From: a virus
Taxonomy: Duplodnaviria > Caudoviricetes
Virus record (IMG/VR): IMGVR_UViG_3300037743_000193
Location: 1 to 29,777 of that record
Reading direction: 5' to 3' (one strand)
DNA: 29,777 nt
Position 1 is the first letter of the stretch, and the number at the start of each line of letters is the position of its first letter. The notes under the pieces were generated by a model. The model saw nothing but the letters and a program-made list of their open reading frames with translations. It was not told the origin of the DNA and made no database searches. Of this stretch, positions 4,769 to 26,875 are shown piece after piece. The translations under genes were made by a program, and so were the position numbers.

Positions 4769-5403
4769 GACTTGCCCCCGAACGAGGACTCGGCGTCGAT
4801 GACGTTGTCGGGCTCGTCGGTGTCGTCAACCTCGGGCGCTGCGTTCAGCTGCGGCATTACCCCGGACAGCAGCTCACCAGCTGCGACGGCTCGGCTGTGG
4901 CGCTTGCCCACCTCGAGTTGCGCGTGCTCATGCCGGTCGATGAGCCCTCGCGGCGCGAACCTACCCATCTGCGCGATCGATTGGCTGCGCTCGCGGATGG
5001 AGCGATAGGCGTCGATGAACCGGGCGCGGCTGCTGGCCGGATTGTCGCTCAGGCACAGGTTGCGCCAGCCGATGACGTCCACGGCTTCGGCGATTTCGCG
5101 GATGTCGAACGTCGGGGTGCGGTACGAGCCAACGCGAGAGATTGCGCGACGGACCTCGCCCCACGCCTCCTCGCCGGACGGGATCGCCGACATCGACTCC
5201 TCCGCGACCTCGGCCCGGATCTCGGCGATGGTCGGGAAGAACTTCGAGGTCGCGATTAGGCGCTGGGTTGCGGCCCGGGCCTCGTCGTAATCCAGATCGG
5301 CGAGCATATGCGAGTACGCCTTGACGGTCGCCTCGTCGATCTCCTGGCGCGGGTAGGACGCTCGCAGGATCGAGAGCAGTCGCTTGATGTCGGCGTTGGT
5401 CAC
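4765..5403 (-). CDS. Replicative helicase loader/inhibitor (SPP1 G39P-like)
   Basis: LL..L.ASYP..AYSHML.DL..A..R.IATSKFFPTIAEIR and GEEAWGEV..AI motifs. Directly follows the initiator gene. Confidence 0.78.
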   Translation of the reverse strand: MTNADIKRLLSILRASYPRQEIDEATVKAYSHMLADLDYDEARAATQRLIATSKFFPTIAEIRAEVAEESMSAIPSGEEAWGEVRRAISRVGSYRTPTFDIREIAEAVDVIGWRNLCLSDNPASSRARFIDAYRSIRERSQSIAQMGRFAPRGLIDRHEHAQLEVGKRHSRAVAAGELLSGVMPQLNAAPEVDDTDEPDNVIDAESSFGGKS

Positions 5404-6326
5404 TTTTTCTCCTTGTCGGCGTCTTCGGCTTCAGCCATGGCCCAAAGCTCCTCGGCTGTGTAACCGCGGTTGTTGCTACTCCCCTTCGGCTTCGGGATCG
5501 GCTGGTCCTCGTCCTCCCAGCACCGCCCGCGGACGTAGGTGGTGAAGTGCGGGATGAACGCCCGCTCCTGGTCCTTGGCGGGGACGTGCCTCCACGCCAG
5601 CTCGAGCCCGGTCATCTTCGCGAGCGCGGCGCTGTAGTCGCCCTGGGTCTGGATCTCGGACTCGGCTGCTTCGAGCCCGCGCTTCCGGTTGCGCTTGCGG
5701 GGGTACAGGTCGTAGAGCTTCGCGAGGTCGAACCGGGGAACGCACACGTCGGGGACGAGCAGTTGTGCGCCGCCCGGCGCACATATCTCCTGCTCCCTGC
5801 TACCTGCTACCTGCTCCCTGCTACCTGCTACCTGTATTTGCGAAAGGGCAGCGAAAGACTCTGCGAAAGCAGCCTCAAAGGCTTTGCCCAAGGCTTTCGC
5901 AAAGGCTTTAAGCTCTCGCCAGACCTCGACTTTTAGCTCGCAGTCAGGTACCCGATCCCACCCCTTCGCCCACCCCTTGATGCGGTTCGGGTTGGTGGGC
6001 TTGGTGCTCTTGCGCGCGGTCCCATCACGGTGCCTCAGTGCTCTCGGCAGCCAGATGAGTCCGGCCTTCGTGTCGGCTTTCGCTAAACCTTCCGACAAGA
6101 CTTCGGCAAAGGCTTTCGCAAAGGCTTTCGCGTCCCATCGGAGGTCGTCCGCAAGCACCGCTGGGCGCGCGATTATGACGCCCGGTATCTTGGTCGTCCT
6201 CCGCCCGGTCAGGAGATAGAGCCAGAGCGCTTGGCCGCCGGGCTCGAGGGGGGTCAGCTCACGGAAAGCGAGGTCGTCCCACATCTCGACCTCGACGGTC
6301 TTGTAGACGCGATGCTCTCGGCTCAC
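5400..6326 (-). CDS. Phage replication initiation protein
   Basis: N-terminal MWDD..FRELT..ALWLYLLT (HTH-type), a repeat-containing linker, and C-terminal F..LYDLYPRK...FIPHFTTYV.G.CWEDE. Confidence 0.82.
   Translation of the reverse strand: MSREHRVYKTVEVEMWDDLAFRELTPLEPGGQALWLYLLTGRRTTKIPGVIIARPAVLADDLRWDAKAFAKAFAEVLSEGLAKADTKAGLIWLPRALRHRDGTARKSTKPTNPNRIKGWAKGWDRVPDCELKVEVWRELKAFAKALGKAFEAAFAESFAALSQIQVAGSREQVAGSREQEICAPGGAQLLVPDVCVPRFDLAKLYDLYPRKRNRKRGLEAAESEIQTQGDYSAALAKMTGLELAWRHVPAKDQERAFIPHFTTYVRGRCWEDEDQPIPKPKGSSNNRGYTAEELWAMAEAEDADKEKK
5790..5834. repeat. Tandem heptamer CTGCT(C/A)C x6 (2 x 21 bp) inside the initiator gene
   Basis: Read directly from the sequence; encodes QVAGSRE twice. 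Confidence 0.95.
5838..6131. repeat. Iteron-like 12-bp-period repeats (putative replication origin)
   Basis: AAGGCTTT at 5878, 5890, 5902, 6109 and 6121, with degenerate copies at 6073, 6085 and 6097. Inverted GCGAAAG at 5840, 5851 and 5863. Locally AT-richer. Confidence 0.75.
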
Positions 6327-6826
6327 CGCACCCTCCAAATCAGCCCGGCATCGGCAAACGCCGTGAGGAAACACTCCGGCCGCCACCCGTGGTAAACGAA
6401 CGCGCTCGGGAACGGAGCCCCGGCTGGAGCTCCACGGAACGAAATGCGCCCGCGCCAGAAACAGATCGTGGCAGCCCGCTCGGCCAGCTTGCGGAATGCC
6501 TTCGAGTCCGTGCGCGACGGGACCAGCGTGATGATCTCGCAGTCAACCGAGGACTCGCGGTCGATCTTCTCGGCCCAGTTGAGCGGCCCGCGCCCCCTCG
6601 TGTACGGCGGGTTGCAGAACACGAGCCCGCCCGCCGCCATCTCGTGCCACGGCGCCTGGAGCCCGTCCGGCTCGTCCTCGGCCGTGATCCAGCGGACGGC
6701 CCCGGTCGGGTTGTCGGGCTCGGTGCAGGGGTCGAGCGCGATGGGGGCGATGGCTCGAACGCGGTCCAGGACGTGATCTGGGGTTTGCCACGTGGACTTG
6801 TCGCTGGAGAAGTGGACGCTGGTCAC
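6323..6826 (-). CDS. Phage DNA N6-adenine methyltransferase (Dam_phage-like)
   Basis: WQTP, LDPC, DGL..PW, VFCNPPY, LVPSRTD, GRISF and APFPS motifs. Confidence 0.92.
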   Translation of the reverse strand: MTSVHFSSDKSTWQTPDHVLDRVRAIAPIALDPCTEPDNPTGAVRWITAEDEPDGLQAPWHEMAAGGLVFCNPPYTRGRGPLNWAEKIDRESSVDCEIITLVPSRTDSKAFRKLAERAATICFWRGRISFRGAPAGAPFPSAFVYHGWRPECFLTAFADAGLIWRVR

Positions 6827-7110
6827 GCGGCCACCTCTTGCGCTAGGATCGGGGGATGCGGATCTGGGCTTGGGTGGCGCTGTCGGCTCTCCTGGCAGGG
6901 GTCGCCGGCGGGACCGGCTACTCGCTCGGCCATGTACGGGCCGAGGAGGCCGGCTGGGAGGCCGGCGAGGAGCGCGACCGAGTCCGAGCCCGCGCCCCGG
7001 ATTACATCTGGGTGGAACTCGACGGGGAGCGTGTGCCCGCTCGCTGCCGGGACCTCGATGGGATCCGGATCTCGCCCCGGAAGTGGCCTGAGTTCCGGTA
7101 GCCCCCTCAT
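6823..7110 (-). CDS. Bridge ORF, antisense to 6856..7101
   Basis: ATGA overlap with the CII-like stop and GTGA overlap with the MTase start. Product is Pro-rich with no recognisable fold. Confidence 0.4.
   Translation of the reverse strand: MRGLPELRPLPGRDPDPIEVPAASGHTLPVEFHPDVIRGAGSDSVALLAGLPAGLLGPYMAERVAGPAGDPCQESRQRHPSPDPHPPILAQEVAA
6844..6849 (+). promoter_or_regulatory. -10 element TAGGAT of a probable leaderless transcript
   Basis: Lies 6 nt upstream of ATG 6856; no convincing -35. Confidence 0.5.
6856..7101 (+). CDS. Small N-terminally anchored or secreted protein, antisense within the early operon
   Basis: MRIWAWVALSALLAGVAGGTGYSLG signal/TM segment; codons mostly end in G/C. Confidence 0.65.
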   Translation: MRIWAWVALSALLAGVAGGTGYSLGHVRAEEAGWEAGEERDRVRARAPDYIWVELDGERVPARCRDLDGIRISPRKWPEFR

Positions 7111-7481
7111 CCCTCCACCCCCGCCCGCTCAAGCAGCAGCCGCCCGACGTCCCCTTGAGTGCGCAGAACGGCCTTGAGCGCCGCCAGGTCCTCCTCGGGG
7201 CTCCTCGGCGCTCGCTCGAAGCGGCCCCCGCTCAGCCGCGCGAACCACTCGGCCACGCGCGGCGAGTGGACGGCGAAGTAGACCAGGTGCCGGGCCTTGA
7301 TGTGGCACCGGTCCCGGTCCGCGAGCATGTTGTCGAGGACGGTCCGGCTGACGTCGAGGTCGTAGGCAACCTCCTTGCGTCCGATGCGGTCGGCCTCCTG
7401 CCGGACGATCCCCAGCAGTTCCGGCCAGCGTTCCTCGCTCAGATAGGGGAAGGGGAACGCGAGGCGCACTTGCTCAGTCAT
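7107..7481 (-). CDS. CII-like regulatory protein
   Basis: Position after cro; GRKEVAYDLDVSRTVLDNML HTH-like segment. An alternative start exists at 7574. Confidence 0.6.
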   Translation of the reverse strand: MTEQVRLAFPFPYLSEERWPELLGIVRQEADRIGRKEVAYDLDVSRTVLDNMLADRDRCHIKARHLVYFAVHSPRVAEWFARLSGGRFERAPRSPEEDLAALKAVLRTQGDVGRLLLERAGVEG

Positions 7482-7583: not shown

Positions 7584-7814
7584 CTAGCTGGCCTTCCGGC
7601 GCTTCTTGGTCCGCGGCAGGCGCCCGAACAGGAGCTCTTTCCGCGAGATCCCAAGGGCTCTCGCGATCGCCTCCTCGTTGTCGGTCCGGGGTGCGTAAAC
7701 ACCCGTTTCCCACTGGGAGACTGCCTGCGGGGTAACCTCAGCCAGCTCAGCCAGCTCTACTTGAGTCATTCCGCAGTCTTCGCGGAAGCGACGGATACGG
7801 AGACCTAGAGCCAT
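7584..7814 (-). CDS. Cro-like XRE-family HTH regulator
   Basis: LGLRIRRFRE..GMTQVELAELAEVTPQAVSQWETG..P motif; first gene of the leftward operon. Confidence 0.9.
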   Translation of the reverse strand: MALGLRIRRFREDCGMTQVELAELAEVTPQAVSQWETGVYAPRTDNEEAIARALGISRKELLFGRLPRTKKRRKAS

Positions 7815-7821
7815 GGATCTA

Positions 7822-7850
7822 TCGGTACCGAACCGCGGCTCAATAGTCAA
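7822..7850 (-). promoter_or_regulatory. Leftward early promoter: TTGACT-17-TACCGA, 7 nt before the cro ATG
   Basis: -35 at 7850-7845 and imperfect -10 at 7827-7822; overlapped by an operator. Confidence 0.6.
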
Positions 7851-7861
7851 GTCTAACTTGG
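7847..7861. promoter_or_regulatory. Operator palindrome TCAAGT-CTA-ACTTGG
   Basis: The reverse complement of 7846-7862 matches 8645-8661 at 16/17 positions. Confidence 0.8.
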
Positions 7862-8645: not shown

Positions 8646-8685
8646 CCAAGTTTGACTTGACGTGCGTCAAGCCAGGCTTTAACCT
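8646..8685 (+). promoter_or_regulatory. Rightward early promoter TTGACG-17-TAACCT with two operators (8646-8660, 8667-8681)
   Basis: -35 at 8657-8662, -10 at 8680-8685, ATG 6 nt later. Operators are CCAAGT-TTG-ACTTGA and TCAAGC-CAG-GCTTTA. Confidence 0.82.
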
Positions 8686-13388: not shown

Positions 13389-13612
13389 CCCGGGACCTCG
13401 ACCGCGAGCTGGCCCGGCGGCTGGGGCCAGAGGAGATCCTCACCGTCACCCAGGCCGCTCGTTTCCTAGGGGTTGCGCGCCGATCCCTGTACGAAGCCAT
13501 CGGCCGCCTCGAGGTTCCGCACCGAAGGATCGGCCGCCGCATTGTTCTTTCCCGCGCCGCCCTCGTACGATGGCTGGACTCGTGCGAGGCGCCGGCCAGG
13601 AATGGAGCCTGA
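13385..13612 (+). CDS. xis: Excisionase (HTH_17-like)
   Basis: ILTVTQAARFLGVARRSLYEAI...VPHRRIGRRIVL...L.RWL; directly upstream of the integrase. Confidence 0.88.
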   Translation: MTRDLDRELARRLGPEEILTVTQAARFLGVARRSLYEAIGRLEVPHRRIGRRIVLSRAALVRWLDSCEAPARNGA

Positions 13613-14691
13613 TGGCTGCCTACAAGGACGACACCGGCCGATGGCGTTACCGGAGGCGGATTCGTTTACCTAATGGGAAGCGGACCCGCATCAAAGGGAC
13701 GCCGGAGACCAACACCCGAGCCGCGGCAGAGGCGGCCGAGCGGGACCGCATCTGGAGATTGCAGAACCCGCTGGCCTTTGCCGACGCCACACCAAAGGAG
13801 GTACCGACACTCAGAGAATACACCGACCAATTCCTCAACGGCTACGCCGCCGATCACAAGGAGCGGAGCCGCGAGGAGAAACGACGCATCCTCGACACGT
13901 ACATCCTGGAAGAACTCGGCGAGCTCCGGCTCAGCGAGATCACCCAGGCGACCATCGACACCCTCAGGGCCGACCTACTCCGGGGCCGAACGACGAAGAC
14001 CGCGGCGAACGTGCTCGCGGTCCTGTCCTCGATCATGAAGTACGCGGCACAGAACGGGCTCATCAGCGTGGCCGGCTTCCGGTTCACGGTGAAGTCCGAC
14101 GAGGGGGCCGAGGTTGAAGCCGTGCCCGCGGTGGACATCGGCAAGCTGATCGCAGCGACGCCAGACCACCGTTACCGGGTGATGATCCTGCTCGCCGCCG
14201 AAGCCGGGCTCAGGGCCGGAGAGATCCGCGCCCTGGAGTGGGCCGACATCGACGGCGAGCTGCTCAACATCCGGCGCGCCCTCGACACCCGGAACCGCCC
14301 GACATCGACCAAGAGCCGGCGCCATCGCCGGGTGCCCGTCAGCCACGAGCTCGCGGGCGCCCTCGATCGGCATCGGCAGACCGGACCGACCGTGGTCACC
14401 AAGTTGCGGTCACCGGGCCCGCTCACCTACTGGGCGATGCGGGATGGGATCCTCTCGGTGTACGACGCCGCGGGGGTCCGGGTGCCGTCGATGCCCTGGC
14501 ACGCGCTCCGTCACAGCTACGGGACCGCCCTCGCTCGCGCGGGTGTCCCGGTAGAGGTGATCCGCAAGGCGATGGGTCACGCCTCCATTGCGACGACCCT
14601 TCGCTACTTCCACACCGACGATGACGACCTCATCGCCGCCGCCCGTTCGACGTTTGGGCCCACACTGGGCCCGAGCTCGGATCTGGCATGA
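13612..14691 (+). CDS. int: Tyrosine integrase
   Basis: Catalytic set GLRAGE, TKS, HALRH, MGH and RY; N-terminal arm-binding region (WRYRRRI). Confidence 0.96.
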   Translation: MAAYKDDTGRWRYRRRIRLPNGKRTRIKGTPETNTRAAAEAAERDRIWRLQNPLAFADATPKEVPTLREYTDQFLNGYAADHKERSREEKRRILDTYILEELGELRLSEITQATIDTLRADLLRGRTTKTAANVLAVLSSIMKYAAQNGLISVAGFRFTVKSDEGAEVEAVPAVDIGKLIAATPDHRYRVMILLAAEAGLRAGEIRALEWADIDGELLNIRRALDTRNRPTSTKSRRHRRVPVSHELAGALDRHRQTGPTVVTKLRSPGPLTYWAMRDGILSVYDAAGVRVPSMPWHALRHSYGTALARAGVPVEVIRKAMGHASIATTLRYFHTDDDDLIAAARSTFGPTLGPSSDLA

Positions 14692-14729
14692 GAAAAACCC
14701 GCGAAACCGGAATGGTCTCGCGGGCTTCC
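14692..14729. terminator. Hairpin terminator (U-tract on the minus strand, possibly bidirectional)
   Basis: AAACCCGCGAAACC-GGAAT-GGTCTCGCGGGCTT; follows both the int stop and the tRNA fragment. Confidence 0.8.
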
Positions 14730-14732
14730 TGT

Positions 14733-14754
14733 TGCGACCCCAACGGGATTTGAA
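14733..14754 (-). other. attP core = tRNA 3' fragment (T-loop plus acceptor strand; Glu/Asp-like)
   Basis: Minus strand reads TTCAAAT-CCCGT-TGGGGTC-G-CA; the 5' part of the tRNA is absent. Confidence 0.85.
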
Positions 14755-14880: not shown

Positions 14881-15366
14881 ATGTCTGATGAAGTTTGGAA
14901 ACCAGTGCCGGATCTGCCCGGCGTGGAGGCGAGCAGCCGAGGGCGGATCCGCATCGACGGAACCGTCCGTCGATCCTCGTCGAGTAATGGCTACCTCCGC
15001 GTCCAGCCCAAGATCGACGGGAAGAAGCGGTGCCTCTACGTTCACCAGCTCGTCCTGGCGGCCTTCGTGGGCCCGCGGCCTCCCGGCCTCGTCTCGCGTC
15101 ACCTGGACGACAATCCGCTCGACAACCGCCCGGAGAACCTCGCCTACGGGACCCAGGCACAGAACATGGCTGACCGTGACAAGCATGGCAACGGCCCTAC
15201 CGGCGCGCGCAACGGCCGCTCTAAGCTGACCCCGGCGTTAGTCCGACTCGTCCGTCTAGCCCGAAAGGGGGGTGCCTCGTTTCAGGCCATCGCCGACGCG
15301 GTCAACATGAACTCGACGACCATCCAGGACATCTGCAAGGGCCGCCTATGGAAGGATGTGGCGTGA
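14881..15366 (+). CDS. NUMOD4-type HNH endonuclease with a C-terminal HTH
   Basis: EVWKPV, SS.GRIR, NGYL.V, YVHQLV..AF.G, RHLDDNP.DN..ENL..GT...N and SKLT motifs. Confidence 0.9.
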
Positions 15367-16123: not shown

Positions 16124-16501
16124 CTAGCCCCACCGCGCCGGCTTCGGTCGGATGTCGTAGTGAGTGAACGTCGCGTATCGCCCAACCCCGCCGTTGCGCA
16201 TCCGCCCTTCCCGAACCAGGCGCAGGATAGTCGCGTGGACCTTCCGGGCCGGCACTCCGCGCACCACGATGTCGGCAGCCCTGGCGTAGAGGTGCTGGCT
16301 GGTCTTCCCGCCGCCGACGCCCCGGTTGTAGGCCGGGTGCCGGTAGCCGCTGTTGACCTTGATCACCTTGCCCCCGAGCTCGGCCCGGAGCACCTCGAGC
16401 TGCTCGGCGAGGCACGTGACCCGGGCCAGCCACCTCGCCGGGACCGGGGTCCCGTCGCGGCAAGAGAACTCGTCCAACCAGAAATGAGGCGTGAGCTTCA
16501 C
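16124..16501 (-). CDS. Endolysin, peptidase M15A (Zn D-Ala-D-Ala carboxypeptidase-like)
   Basis: LTPHF.L.EF, NSGYR...N..VGG..SQH...AAD and FTHYD.R motifs. Confidence 0.9.
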   Translation of the reverse strand: MKLTPHFWLDEFSCRDGTPVPARWLARVTCLAEQLEVLRAELGGKVIKVNSGYRHPAYNRGVGGGKTSQHLYARAADIVVRGVPARKVHATILRLVREGRMRNGGVGRYATFTHYDIRPKPARWG

Positions 16502-16740
16502 AACCGGTCCTTCCCCTCTTTCGTCCTCAGCGCCCGGACCATGCACGATGCGCAGATCATCACGACGCTGACCTGGATCCGGGTCAAAGCCGGCGCGCCA
16601 CACAGGCGGTGGTGCCGGCTCTCGCCCTGCCAGTGGCGCCGGGTGCCATCGACGAGATGCCACGTCTGCCACTCCCCGTCCGTGACCGGCAGCCAACGCG
16701 AGCCCTCGGGCGGGCCCAGGGTGACGACGGTTAGGGTCAA
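16498..16740 (-). CDS. Small His/Cys metal-binding protein
   Basis: WH...LCG...CASC; TTG start, and its stop overlaps the endolysin GTG. Confidence 0.55.
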   Translation of the reverse strand: MTLTVVTLGPPEGSRWLPVTDGEWQTWHLVDGTRRHWQGESRHHRLCGAPALTRIQVSVVMICASCMVRALRTKEGKDRL

Positions 16741-17264
16741 CCGAACGCCCCGTGTCGATTTGTTTGATTTACGGGTTGACGGCGCCGCGGAGATGCCTTA
16801 GATTGAGAGTCATGAACACGACGCAGACCACCGGAACCCAGCACCTCATCGCCCGCGCCGCCAAGGACAGCCGCGTCGCCGGACTCCTCCAGGACGTCTA
16901 CCGCTACGGCCGGCGCGGGGACTACGTGCTCCAGGAGCAGGCCCTCAAGACCCTGGACGACTACTGCCAGGGAGATTTCTCGGCTCGCGACGCGGCCGCC
17001 GCCGCCGAGAGCCAGGAGAGCAGGATCGCGAGGGCGAAGGAGCTGCGCGGCGAGCTGGCTGACGCCGCTGCGGAGCTCTACGGCGAATGAGCCCCCGCGG
17101 AGGCCCACGCCCCGGCGCCGGTCGCAAGCGGCGCCGGGTGCGGCTCCAAGCCTACGTCGAGCCCGAGCTAGCCGAAGCCGTGGAGCGCGCCGCCGATGAT
17201 GCCTGCCTCGAGATCCAGGACTGGCTGCGGCGGGCGCTGAGCCGGGCGGTCGAGTAGCGGTCAC
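16737..17264 (-). CDS. Bridge ORF spanning the antisense cassette
   Basis: GTG 17264 overlaps the stop at 17261-17263; its TGA overlaps TTG 16740. Product is shadow-like. Confidence 0.3.
   Translation of the reverse strand: MTATRPPGSAPAAASPGSRGRHHRRRAPRLRLARARRRLGAAPGAACDRRRGVGLRGGSFAVELRSGVSQLAAQLLRPRDPALLALGGGGRVASREISLAVVVQGLEGLLLEHVVPAPAVAVDVLEESGDAAVLGGAGDEVLGSGGLRRVHDSQSKASPRRRQPVNQTNRHGAFG
16776..16804 (+). promoter_or_regulatory. Sigma70-type promoter TTGACG-17-TAGATT, leaderless
   Basis: ATG lies 7 nt after the -10; AT-rich tract upstream at 16757-16771. Confidence 0.82.
16812..17090 (+). CDS. Moron-like protein of unknown function (92 aa)
   Basis: Own promoter; G/C-ending codons; antisense to the late operon. 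Confidence 0.78.
   Translation: MNTTQTTGTQHLIARAAKDSRVAGLLQDVYRYGRRGDYVLQEQALKTLDDYCQGDFSARDAAAAAESQESRIARAKELRGELADAAAELYGE
17087..17257 (+). CDS. Ribbon-helix-helix-like DNA-binding protein, 56 aa (not in the ORF track)
   Basis: MSPRGGPRPGAGRKRRRVRLQAYVEPELAEAVERAADDACLEIQDWLRRALSRAVE; ATGA overlap. Confidence 0.78.
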   Translation: MSPRGGPRPGAGRKRRRVRLQAYVEPELAEAVERAADDACLEIQDWLRRALSRAVE

Positions 17265-17434: not shown

Positions 17435-17601
17435 TCCTCGCCGTCCCGCATCTGAACCGCGCAATGCATGCGGCACGGCTCCGAGATGGTAACGGTGGCC
17501 GCCACGAGCCGGCCCGCGATGTACTGGTGCGCGATCCACAGCAGCTGCTGGAACACGGCCCAGCGCCCATCGACGACCTGGTGCCCGGACTCGCGGCTCA
17601 A
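17431..17601 (-). CDS. Small hypothetical protein, 56 aa (not in the ORF track)
   Basis: TTGA and ATGA overlaps; ..DGRWAVFQQLLWIAHQYIAGRLVAATV.. Confidence 0.55.
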   Translation of the reverse strand: MSRESGHQVVDGRWAVFQQLLWIAHQYIAGRLVAATVTISEPCRMHCAVQMRDGEE

Positions 17602-17933
17602 GGCACCCTCGGCTTCTGCTCAGTCAGCCGTGGGACCCGACTCCGGTCGTAGCACTGCCCGACCGCGTGCAGCCCCGCCCTCGGTCCCCAGAACTCGGCC
17701 AGCCACTGAGCCCGCTTGCAGGTAGCGAGCGAGTCCGCGCAGAAAGTCACCCACTCACCCGTGTTGGTCACGCCCTGGACGCAGGTCGTCGGCGGCTCGA
17801 TGTGCGGTGCCGGGGCCAGGGGTGCCGCCTTGGACCCGCACCCGCAAACCAGCACCACCAGCCCCAGGATCAGCCCGAGCAAGCCCGCGATCAAGGTCGC
17901 CCGCCCTCCGGGATCGTGGCCGCCGAAGGTCAC
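17598..17933 (-). CDS. Putative lipoprotein
   Basis: Hydrophobic stretch then LVCGC/GS, a Pro-rich linker and four further Cys. Confidence 0.6.
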   Translation of the reverse strand: MTFGGHDPGGRATLIAGLLGLILGLVVLVCGCGSKAAPLAPAPHIEPPTTCVQGVTNTGEWVTFCADSLATCKRAQWLAEFWGPRAGLHAVGQCYDRSRVPRLTEQKPRVP

Positions 17934-18079
17934 GGGCTCTCCCTCGACGTCCGCCCTGTCTTGCGGTATGGTGACAGGTAATTCGGCCCTGGTTGCCGAA
18001 GGGGGACCGCTCGTATGGGCGGTCGAGCAAGGGCCGGCAGCAATGTCGGCCTTTGTCTTTTGGGGCTGATTAAGGTCAC
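17930..18079 (-). CDS. Bridge ORF (49 aa) spanning the antisense RNA locus
   Basis: GTGA overlaps at both ends, 50 codons, no internal stop. Atypical codons. Confidence 0.3.
   Translation of the reverse strand: MTLISPKRQRPTLLPALARPPIRAVPLRQPGPNYLSPYRKTGRTSRESP
17944..17972 (+). promoter_or_regulatory. Promoter TCGACG-17-TATGGT
   Basis: Same geometry as the promoters at 8657 and 16776; the -10 is bracketed by CCTGTC/GACAGG. Confidence 0.6.
17979..18061 (+). ncRNA. Candidate ~83-nt structured small RNA
   Basis: Three consecutive hairpins whose G-U pairs work only on the + strand. The last has a GCAA tetraloop and a U-rich tail. Confidence 0.6.
18029..18061 (+). terminator. Intrinsic terminator
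   Basis: AAGGGCCGGCA-GCAA-TGTCGGCCTTT followed by GTCTTTT. Confidence 0.7.
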
Positions 18080-18291
18080 GGGTCCTTGGTCAGCTCGAGG
18101 TAGTGGTCGATGATGTCGTCAGCCCGGGACAGTCGCTTCTCGGCGTCGTCGGCGGCCACCTGGAGCAGCCGCATCCCGATCGCTTGCAGCCTTACGCGGT
18201 CGCTCGGGACAGTGGCCGAAAGCATCTTGCTCAGCTCCCCGATCTCGTCGGCGGGCGCCATTTGCTCCTCGGGCGTTTTCTCTCTGGTCAT
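18076..18291 (-). CDS. Hypothetical helical protein
   Basis: GGAG SD; G/C-ending codons. Confidence 0.7.
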   Translation of the reverse strand: MTREKTPEEQMAPADEIGELSKMLSATVPSDRVRLQAIGMRLLQVAADDAEKRLSRADDIIDHYLELTKDP

Positions 18292-18452
18292 CGCGATCTT
18301 CTCCGTCTTTGCATGGGCCGTCTCCGGTCCCGGTCAGTTACCTCGCGGTTGAACTCGCTCCAGCAGTTGTGCGGCGCCGGCTGGCGTTCGCGGATCTCCC
18401 GGTACAGGTCGATACACGAGAAGGCCCAGTCCACGATCACGAGCGGGTTCAT
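18288..18452 (-). CDS. Small hypothetical protein, 54 aa (not in the ORF track)
   Basis: MNPLVIVDWAFSCIDLYREIRERQ...; ATGA overlaps at both ends. Confidence 0.55.
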   Translation of the reverse strand: MNPLVIVDWAFSCIDLYREIRERQPAPHNCWSEFNREVTDRDRRRPMQRRRRSR

Positions 18453-18634
18453 GGCTTCTCCAATTCGCGCCGCTCCCCGGCCTCGTAGCCGGCGATGAGA
18501 GCGCGAACCATGTCCTCAGCCATACTGAACTCCCTGGCCAGGGTCGCGAGATCGTCCCCGGCCCGGTACTGATCGGTCAGTGCTGCGGCGAGGGACAAGC
18601 CGACCACCCGCGGCGTGGTGAGGTATCGGGTCAT
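18449..18634 (-). CDS. Small HTH-like protein
   Basis: YRAGDDLATLAREFSMAEDMVRALI resembles a DUF433-type HTH. Confidence 0.55.
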   Translation of the reverse strand: MTRYLTTPRVVGLSLAAALTDQYRAGDDLATLAREFSMAEDMVRALIAGYEAGERRELEKP

Positions 18635-19968: not shown

Positions 19969-20211
19969 TTACGCCTCCGAAGGGTCTTTGGCCACCGCGG
20001 CTTTGGCGGCGGCGAGGACGGCCTCTTTGCCGTTGTCGGCGATGCCCTGGCCGACGATATACGCGGCGATCAGGAGGAGGATCTCGAGGACGCTCTCCTC
20101 GGGGATGAGCACCCCGGCCTTGGCCAGGCCCCAGACGACGGCGCCGGCGAGGAGGGCCAGGGCTTTCTTGCTAGTGAGGAAGGTCTTGAGCAGGTCTTTG
20201 ACGATGTCCAT
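19969..20211 (-). CDS. Holin (two TM helices)
   Basis: TSKKALALLAGAVVWGL...LLLIAAYIVGQGIAD; AGGAGG SD. Confidence 0.78.
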   Translation of the reverse strand: MDIVKDLLKTFLTSKKALALLAGAVVWGLAKAGVLIPEESVLEILLLIAAYIVGQGIADNGKEAVLAAAKAAVAKDPSEA

Positions 20212-25855: not shown

Positions 25856-26875
25856 TCAGCCCCCCTTCATTTTCTTCTCGCGCTCGAGCTCCTCGATGCG
25901 CCGGTTGAGGTCCGCGGTGGCGGCGGCGATGGCCCCGGTCAGCTTGCCGCCGTCGATCGTCTTGCCCTGCGGCGTGTCGGAGACCATCGAGGCACCCTCT
26001 GGGGTCCGCTCGAGGTCCTGGGCCATGATGCCGACGTGTCGCCCGGCGCCATGCTGGGCCGGATCCCGGTAGCGGTATGCGGCCGGCTGGAGGGACGTGA
26101 GCAGTCGGCGAACGCTGCCGGACCCGTCATCGATGGCGGTCTTGGCGCGAACGTCGGAGAAAAACGCGCCGGCCGCGCCGATCGCGCTGCTGAGCATGCC
26201 GGCTTTCCGCTCCCCGCTAGTCGGCGTCTGCGTCATGGCGTCGAACCGGTTGCCGCGCTGCTGCTCGATCTGGCCGAATGCGTCGAGAGCCTGGCCGCGC
26301 CCGCCGAGCGTCGCCTGGAGGTCCTGGCCGCGAAGGCCGGTGAGCCCCTGCGCCGCCGCCTGGCGCTCGGCGATTCCAGCCATGGCCTGCTGGCCGGACA
26401 GGCCCGCGCCCATGTTGGCCGAGTTCATGGCCGCGGTCCGAGCCGCCATGGCCTGGTTTCCGCCGCGTGCGCCGGCCGCCATCGACTGCTGGGCGGCGAG
26501 GTTCTGACCGAGCCCTTGGCGTAGCTGCTCGGCAGAGAGCGACTGCTCGCCGCTCATCTGGCGTTGCAGCTGCCCGCGCAGTGCCGCGTCATCGAGGAAC
26601 CGCTGCTCGCTGGCGTTGGCGAACTTGCCCGCCTGGCCACCGACATAGGACATAGACCCGGTCGGGTCCACCTGGCGGAACTCGTTATCGGCGCGGCTCT
26701 TGGTCAACTCGCCGAACTGCTCTTTAGCCTGGTCGAGAGCACTCCGGCCCTTCTCTCCCCAGTCGGTGCTCTCGCCGTAGCCGGCCCTCTTGCCGGTGCG
26801 GTGCTCGCGGACGCTGCCCGGCTCGCGTTGCCAATCCCGGCTCTTGTCAATCTCCGTCCCTCGCCACGGCATCAT
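25856..26875 (-). CDS. Gln/Ala/Gly-rich virion protein with a C-terminal peptidase S74 (intramolecular chaperone) domain
   Basis: SDVRAK..I...L.P..YRY...GIMAQDLE...LNRRIEELE motif. Confidence 0.82.
   Translation of the reverse strand: MMPWRGTEIDKSRDWQREPGSVREHRTGKRAGYGESTDWGEKGRSALDQAKEQFGELTKSRADNEFRQVDPTGSMSYVGGQAGKFANASEQRFLDDAALRGQLQRQMSGEQSLSAEQLRQGLGQNLAAQQSMAAGARGGNQAMAARTAAMNSANMGAGLSGQQAMAGIAERQAAAQGLTGLRGQDLQATLGGRGQALDAFGQIEQQRGNRFDAMTQTPTSGERKAGMLSSAIGAAGAFFSDVRAKTAIDDGSGSVRRLLTSLQPAAYRYRDPAQHGAGRHVGIMAQDLERTPEGASMVSDTPQGKTIDGGKLTGAIAAATADLNRRIEELEREKKMKGG

Follow-up and report, generated by a model that had tools for sequence, protein, structure and literature searches.

In a 142-nt intergenic spacer of a temperate phage, we identified what is probably an orphan small RNA gene carried by an accessory module. 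The anatomy read from the sequence, a promoter-like site followed by three hairpins of which the last is terminator-like, holds, and a stand-alone plus-strand RNA of ~82–83 nt, as an earlier sequence-only reading had proposed, is the best interpretation of it. As to its role, we tentatively favor an ~82-nt cis-antisense RNA that would work like lambda OOP, with the late mRNA being cut by RNase III; this view rests on analogy. If transcribed, the locus would be a compact regulatory RNA gene in the accessory module of a phage probably infecting Haliangiales, and OOP-style antisense control would be extended to the late/lysis operon of myxobacterial phages. The RNA would then be one plausible case of a familiar kind, the phage antisense RNAs. 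Positions refer to the window, that is, the whole stretch of DNA analyzed, which is the entire virus record (29,777 bases; G+C 68%; estimated completeness 72%). The features concerned are as follows.

17598–17933, minus strand: 111-aa ORF with a hydrophobic N-terminus and a lipobox-like LVCGC; next cistron downstream on the late mRNA.
17938–18371, no strand: variable module of ~430 bp (promoter, RNA and 71-aa ORF), skipped or replaced in relatives; right border approximate (18340–18388).
17944–17972, plus strand: predicted sigma-70-type promoter TCGACG-17-TATGGT, of the same design as the sites at 8657, 16776 and L079:13190.
17955–17978, no strand: 6-bp inverted repeat CCTGTC-N12-GACAGG around the −10 box, a candidate operator.
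17980–18061, plus strand: predicted non-coding RNA of ~82 nt (82–83), from its fold, with the start at 17979 or 17980 taken from promoter geometry.
17982–18000, plus strand: hairpin H1, predicted by folding, 6 bp, Watson-Crick pairs only, 7-nt loop CCUGGUU.
18001–18004, plus strand: GGGG linker, single-stranded in the fold, forming an SD-like AGGGGG with flanking paired bases.
18005–18024, plus strand: hairpin H2, predicted by folding, 8 bp including one U-G pair, loop GUAU.
18028–18061, plus strand: hairpin H3 and U tail, a predicted intrinsic terminator (fold, terminator scan and Haliangiales hits).
18076–18291, minus strand: 71-aa orphan ORF (ORF scan), convergent with the RNA, its stop 15 nt from the RNA 3′ end.

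Family scans of the ORFs identified an integrase (13612–14691), an excisionase, HTH regulators, an M15 endolysin (16124–16534) and a tail-fibre match (25856–26875). With its integrase, excisionase and HTH regulators, the phage is temperate; it also has a CII-like match at 7107–7481. The closest GTDB relatives of the integrase, at 38–43% identity, come from bins of Kofleriaceae and Haliangiales, which makes a Haliangiales myxobacterium the probable host. Among 183 CRISPR spacers of the order Haliangiales, one had a 21-base exact match to the phage yet 9 mismatches over 36, a weak link. ARAGORN found no tRNA or tmRNA in the window. Elsewhere in the phage, a hairpin after the integrase (14692–14735; −20.6 kcal/mol; T run on the minus strand) is a likely terminator near the attachment region, and 12-nt periodic repeats at 5851–5909 and 6070–6128, within a replication-initiator-like gene (5400–6338), are possible origin iterons.

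Likely genes on the minus strand run from 29565 to 16124, broken by a plus-strand two-gene insert at 16812–17257. The positions of the endolysin and of the tail-fibre match uphold the late/lysis context assigned by the sequence-only reading. The RNA lies wholly within the 142-nt spacer between the minus-strand ORFs 18076–18291 and 17598–17933. The former is likely part of the late operon because its start overlaps the stop (ATGA) of a 54-aa ORF upstream. Its 71-aa product is predicted to fold as a charged helical hairpin (pLDDT 84) and, at E ≤ 0.001, showed neither a homologue nor a match to a known family or fold. The 111-aa product, read by eye, is likely a lipoprotein, with homologue clusters of 9 and 4 members. 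As promoter and terminator scans found neither a minus-strand promoter nor a minus-strand terminator in the spacer, the late mRNA should read through it.

The predicted promoter was in place as first proposed, with its −35 box TCGACG at 17944–17949 and, after a 17-nt spacer, its −10 box TATGGT at 17967–17972. The −35 box adjoins the ribosome-binding region of the minus-strand gene 17598–17933. The site matches 8 of 12 textbook consensus bases, which is under the threshold of the stock promoter/terminator scanner; run on the window, that scanner reported neither this promoter nor the H3 terminator. A looser textbook sigma-70 pattern was not enriched in the window (5 sites versus 4.3 expected). 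The promoter-pattern statistics are partly post hoc, because the pattern was drawn from the same window: TTGACG (at most one mismatch)-17 nt-TAnnnT occurs at 4 sites versus 0.47 expected (200 shuffles), and the promoter match arose in 49 of 5000 shuffles of the RNA-bearing spacer itself (about 1%). When the genome was shuffled 60 times, a promoter and terminator 60–250 nt apart appeared in 3 cases under the loose pattern and in none under the strict one. The fourth strict match, at 15014, falls within a gene and is probably spurious.

Both the 8657 and the 16776 promoter of this phage, as well as L079:13190 in a related phage, have an ATG 6–7 nt past the −10 box, which suggests leaderless mRNAs and the position of +1. 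Applied to the promoter at 17944, this spacing gives a start at T17979 or A17980, where no start codon is found; an ~82-nt non-coding RNA from 17979/17980 is therefore likely. More generally, promoters of the form TTGAC(G/C)-17-TAnnnT with an ATG after 6–7 nt make leaderless mRNAs likely in these myxobacterial phages. The inverted repeat CCTGTC-N12-GACAGG has one perfect site, and with two mismatches allowed there are 4 versus 2.4 expected, which is not significant. Another palindrome, CAAGT-N3-ACTTG, occurs only at 7848–7860 and 8647–8659 (2 versus 0.26 expected); it adjoins the HTH gene 7584–7769, overlaps the −35 box of the promoter at 8657 and is likely the operator of the phage repressor. 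That −35 box is also spanned by a further palindrome, TTGACG-TG-CGTCAA. Since the 17944 promoter has no copy of CAAGT-N3-ACTTG, it probably escapes repressor control.

The unit 17980–18061 folded at −45.2 kcal/mol on the plus strand (z −4.34; 0 of 1000 shuffles as good) and at −31.2 kcal/mol on the minus strand (z −2.98; 3 of 1000). H1, H2 and the terminator H3 all formed where the sequence-only reading had drawn them, with stem pair probabilities of 0.68–1.0, and the G-U pairs U18011-G18018, G18031-U18052 and G18037-U18046 in H2 and H3 favor the plus strand, as it had argued. H1 is the sole stem without a G-U pair and folds on both strands (−6.8 and −7.4 kcal/mol); the pairing sequence of its loop (loop 1) is CCCUGGUUGC. 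The H3 stem (18029–18054) has 11 bp, or 12 with C18028-G18055, and a GCAA loop, and its tail TTTGTCTTTT occupies 18052–18061. Most of the folding signal is supplied by this terminator (H3 z −5.9). Without it, H1 and H2 are modestly structured on the plus strand (z −1.9; 47 of 1000 shuffles as good) and reach z −2.75 on the minus strand (7 of 1000), and 55 of 3706 GC-matched phage 48-mers fold as well as H1+H2. Folding across the whole genome with 12 shuffles per window gave results too noisy for use. Of 15 terminator-like sites in the window, only H3 and a minus-strand site at 14697 have unbroken hairpins, and no second copy of H2 was found there.

The claim that no credible ORF lies between promoter and terminator held overall, with one footnote. 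An AUG at 18015, inside H2 and behind the SD-like AGGGGG, opens a 32-codon frame (SD and frame 17998–18113) that has no stop ahead of the terminator and runs through it. A ribosome decoy or leader peptide acting through this AUG was set aside, as were two ideas on loop 1, namely tRNA CCA-end binding through its UGGU and a candidate U-turn motif.

Related phage DNA was found in six runs labelled sediment metagenome. X4 contigs aligned at 80% likeness join window position 17937 to 18388 and 17927 to 18629, with short sides of 65 and 32 letters and intervening letters that are not known. Contigs of X2 and X6 that extend past the lipoprotein start diverge from the window at 17932 or 17937. By our own reading, the last seven letters of the loose X6 end equal window 18372–18378, so the insert would span about 17938–18371. 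The predicted promoter, the predicted RNA and the 71-aa ORF form one module that is absent from some relatives. No contig over 17948–18079 was found in the four sediment runs examined, and the listed sequencing runs with related phage DNA include no RNA run. At the right border of the module, 18330–18349 is similar to the lipoprotein-like gene's SD and start in relatives, as if duplicated on insertion. A second insert, 16727–17258, is skipped separately in an X4 contig. Besides its own plus-strand promoter it contains two ORFs, an orphan of 92 aa and one of 56 aa that weakly matches NikA, all opposed to the late genes; no terminator was found in it, and L079 has a similar promoter with small ORFs.

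Homologue searches covered virus, metagenome and host-lineage collections. Blastn against INPHARED gave only 3 matches, of 25–32 nt, and no homologue. The exact H2 20-mer had one match in IMG/VR (L001, 86–105), in an unrelated low-GC virus contig and not in a homologue; this copy, in a spacer between two tRNA-like genes read by eye, is probably due to chance. The exact H3 20-mer had one match, without a U tail. A gapped H1–H2 pattern scanned over 34 of 64 parts gave 119 script-read matches, 80 of them model-scored (best 15.8 bits among those scored), and a stem pattern gave 120 metagenome matches (33 of 64 parts) and 3 viral ones, all 123 script-read and 100 model-scored; neither set held a homologue. 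A match at 22.3 bits (L331) was rejected as an unrelated spacer with no promoter. In its own right, L331 866–948 has three hairpins and a T run between OxyR-like and Dps-like genes (named by eye), with no Rfam match.

Within the order Haliangiales, blastn matches occurred in 9 of 147 genomes and were all short or coding, and a single-sequence covariance model matched in 7 of the 147 (31 candidates scored per genome, in incomplete bins). In 5 of these 7 genomes the alignment is essentially to the terminator alone, so H3 is of an ordinary terminator type of the lineage; three of the matches begin at a TAA resembling a gene end. The top hit (L176) comes from an unpublished genome, G041, and the conclusion on the terminator holds on the other four. 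These matches support the predicted function and strand of H3 and say nothing on H1 or H2. In a class-wide sample, 34 of 401 genomes had short matches, and 1 of the 38 matches listed fell within the RNA part, on the terminator. An H2-like hairpin ahead of an HNH-type gene in G127 was rejected as a relative, being a single copy there and at chance level. That hairpin (L172, 1500–1560) shows a U-G to C-G change, lies upstream of a TTGACA and precedes a 453-aa gene whose C-terminus, by eye, looks HNH-like.

The sequence-only reading had recognized no RNA family and pointed to Rfam. There, no family reached gathering level in the window, and three weak matches at E ≤ 5 lay near the site. The best of them, ctRNA_p42d (RF00489; 21.5 versus a gathering threshold of 50 bits), covers the terminator only and was rejected, the context here being a phage. 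ctRNA_p42d belongs to repABC plasmids. Other genomes yielded observations of separate interest. L465 of G253 has ~1 kb (about 500–1531) that may be a long non-coding RNA: by eye it has no convincing ORF, an H3-type terminator lies at its end, and Rfam gave no match at E ≤ 0.01. L164 of G001 has a ~65-nt direct intergenic repeat at 1440–1615, with two short matches to the RNA nearby in opposite orientations. L002 has, at 4796 on the plus strand and 12218 on the minus strand, a promoter-like site with a terminator-like hairpin 135–218 nt downstream, near a related integrase. A literature search on myxobacterial or Kofleriaceae phage RNAs returned no paper by title on such RNAs.

In the cis-antisense reading that we favor, host sigma-70-type polymerase would start at 17979/17980 and stop at 18061, and the promoter, having no copy of the likely repressor operator, may also act in the lysogen. 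The minus-strand late mRNA would read through the spacer and present the mirror of H1, for which a 300-nt context predicts a stem probability of 0.85–0.87 and an unpaired loop (0.89–1.0). Pairing would begin at this open 7-nt mirror loop, the likely first-contact site for loop 1, and the resulting 82-bp duplex would be cleaved by RNase III, by analogy with lambda OOP. Cleavage would separate the cistrons upstream, with the 71-aa ORF, from the lipoprotein-like gene downstream and the more distant endolysin, so that leaky or early late-gene expression would be lowered. The RNA footprint ends ~35 nt upstream of the next SD and overlaps no coding sequence and no ribosome-binding site; with the footprint blocked, the opening energy of the downstream start region stays nearly the same (15.9 versus 17.0 kcal/mol). 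Translational occlusion finds no support on these grounds, and RNase III cutting and decay is the likely outcome because the next ribosome-binding site is neither covered nor freed. Any brake would be dispensable, since relatives manage in its absence.

Of the three roles offered by the sequence-only reading (trans-acting sRNA, protein decoy, antisense brake on late mRNA), the antisense brake fits the predicted anatomy and the spacer position best. In its favor are the promoter match close upstream of the terminator, with the shuffle and window-wide counts given above, and the rarity of such promoter–terminator pairs in genome shuffles. The sister promoters open leaderless ORFs, whereas for the one at 17944 a start codon is missing from +1. 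The RNA is complementary along its full 82 nt to the spacer in a run of minus-strand genes, but this would hold for every transcript of the opposite strand and is no proof of function. H1, free of G-U pairs, forms on both strands; against this, H1+H2 alone are modestly structured, and more so on the minus strand by z-score. The module is skipped in related phages, as is often the case with accessory loci antisense to lytic genes as described in PMC7067206, but no homologue turned up in the collections searched, and L002 has two further layouts of a promoter followed by a terminator (3 in the 242.5 kb scanned).

The same data can be read at the DNA level, or as incidental, which we consider somewhat unlikely: H3 would insulate against plus-strand transcripts, including read-through from 16776, the 17944 promoter would interfere by collision at most, and the RNA would be a by-product. 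H3 holds most of the folding signal and is an ordinary terminator type of the host lineage, H1+H2 are beaten by the shuffles and GC-matched 48-mers counted above, and no collection searched showed conservation. The terminator scan found no plus-strand terminator between the 16776 operon (which ends at 17257) and H3, and for this reason insulation combined with an interfering promoter stays strong as an explanation. It does not readily account for a promoter-like site 72 nt ahead of the tail, improbable by chance (about 1%), for a promoter-to-tail space packed edge to edge with two stable stems, or for a terminator and promoter that share one module, apart from that at 16727–17258. It is extremely improbable that the promoter is a chance match and that no discrete transcription unit exists. 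Its 8 of 12 consensus bases, below the stock threshold, and the probably spurious strict match at 15014 would suit such a view, but the local shuffle probability is about 1% and the geometry is that of the three gene-preceding promoters. Action in trans is rather unlikely. Here loop 1 would cover bases just 5′ of G-rich SD sites (HNH 12658, putative holin 19969–20211, host mRNAs). Of 53 phage start regions, the HNH leader paired best once accessibility was taken into account (10 bp, −8.6 kcal/mol), but 4 of 60 structure-preserving shuffles equalled that energy. Similarly, an SD adjoins each of the three best ungapped matches (10 bp at HNH, 9 bp at the putative holin, 8 bp at ORF 517–714), but start regions were not enriched (8 versus 7.7 expected at −10 kcal/mol; 3 versus 4.5 at −12 kcal/mol). 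What is left of the proposed trans-sRNA role is a borderline HNH target, loop 1 showing no enrichment against phage ribosome-binding sites. The 80-aa ORF at 19969–20211 (minus strand), with two hydrophobic stretches and no family match, is itself a likely holin, and its leader holds one of five exact loop 1 complements outside the RNA locus.

Pairing in cis and in trans could also be combined. It is quite improbable that a 430-bp swappable module brakes lysis twice through its three-hairpin RNA, in cis by cutting of the late mRNA upstream of the lipoprotein and endolysin genes and in trans by loop 1 covering the putative holin and HNH nuclease leaders. If true, such a double brake would be a small RNA that times lysis or blocks superinfection, in a phage whose myxobacterial order has hardly been studied. 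We also regard it as improbable that the RNA is an antitoxin-like partner of the convergent 71-aa ORF, destabilizing its 3′ end in a type I toxin-antitoxin pair. The partner of a type I antitoxin is a short hydrophobic peptide with its own promoter. RNA and ORF are convergent, 15 nt apart and in one module skipped by relatives, but the 71-aa protein is by eye a charged helical hairpin rather than such a peptide and matched no known family or fold; the scans gave its ORF no separate promoter, and the start codon overlaps the stop of the ORF before it. A decoy role, for example as an anti-CRISPR RNA or by soaking up a host RNA-binding protein or a C-rich sRNA, is very improbable. The RNA is highly folded with little single-stranded seed, Cas2 occurs in 41 of 147 Haliangiales-order genomes, and the locus is intergenic, promoter-driven and in an accessory module, like the solitary repeat units described in PMC10651486. 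Its best score against repeats (23), however, is below the phage-wide mean of 25.2, with 75% of 283 windows scoring as high, and Rfam gave no family at E ≤ 5 besides the three weak matches. The comparison used 21 distinct repeats from 22 of 30 Cas2 loci of Haliangiales, and the true host's repeats may differ; the RNA had no likeness to any of the 21, and the suggested anti-defence decoy failed on this point.

Among known systems, the RNA shares with the Pxr sRNA of Myxococcus a myxobacterial context and three predicted stem-loops (PMC5684412). Pxr is described as a 108-nt RNA of the Cystobacterineae with a sigma-54 promoter behind pxrR (nla19) (PMC5684412, PMC5568312). It was rejected here: Pxr (RF01812) had 0 matches at E ≤ 10 in the contig, the predicted promoter is a sigma-70-type site, and none of the 45 ORFs scanned had a response-regulator family match. 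Like Racr and solitary CRISPR repeat units (SRUs) as described in PMC10651486, the RNA is intergenic, behind a predicted promoter and has no cas genes nearby; unlike them, it has no near full-length match to the tested host-lineage CRISPR repeats. It resembles a type I antitoxin in the convergent small ORF (71 aa) 15 nt away, but this partner is not a hydrophobic toxin.

Antisense RNAs of phages offer closer parallels. Precedents described in PMC12197685 include OOP, aQ and PAK_P4as15, and STnc6030 of prophage BTP1 is reported to act in superinfection exclusion, with mRNA destabilization proposed (PMC7067206). Like STnc6030, PAK_P4as15 and lambda aQ, the present RNA would be antisense and face late, structural or lysis functions. 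Those RNAs are given as 220–786 nt long, with STnc6030 opposite coding sequence (PMC7067206, PMC12197685), whereas the RNA predicted here has ~82 nt in a compact fold and lies wholly between cistrons. P22 sar RNA (68/69 nt) is likewise a small phage antisense RNA on a polycistronic mRNA (PMC12197685), but sar is described as blocking ant translation, whereas this RNA ends ~35 nt before the next SD and is predicted to leave access unchanged. Lambda OOP is a 77-nt RNA, cis-antisense to cII, with RNase III decay as the proposed route (PMC12197685, PMC5869508). Compared by layout, the two are similar in size, have their own promoter opposite a polycistronic phage mRNA (here predicted) and have their own hairpin terminator. 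OOP is described as overlapping 52 bases of the cII 3′ end in an early operon; this RNA ends 15 nt short of the stop of the 71-aa ORF, which is not CII-like, and lies in the late region among orphan genes. At most, the RNA would resemble OOP in its mode of action, which is the likeliest reading, and it belongs to none of the OOP, Pxr, Racr or ctRNA groups.
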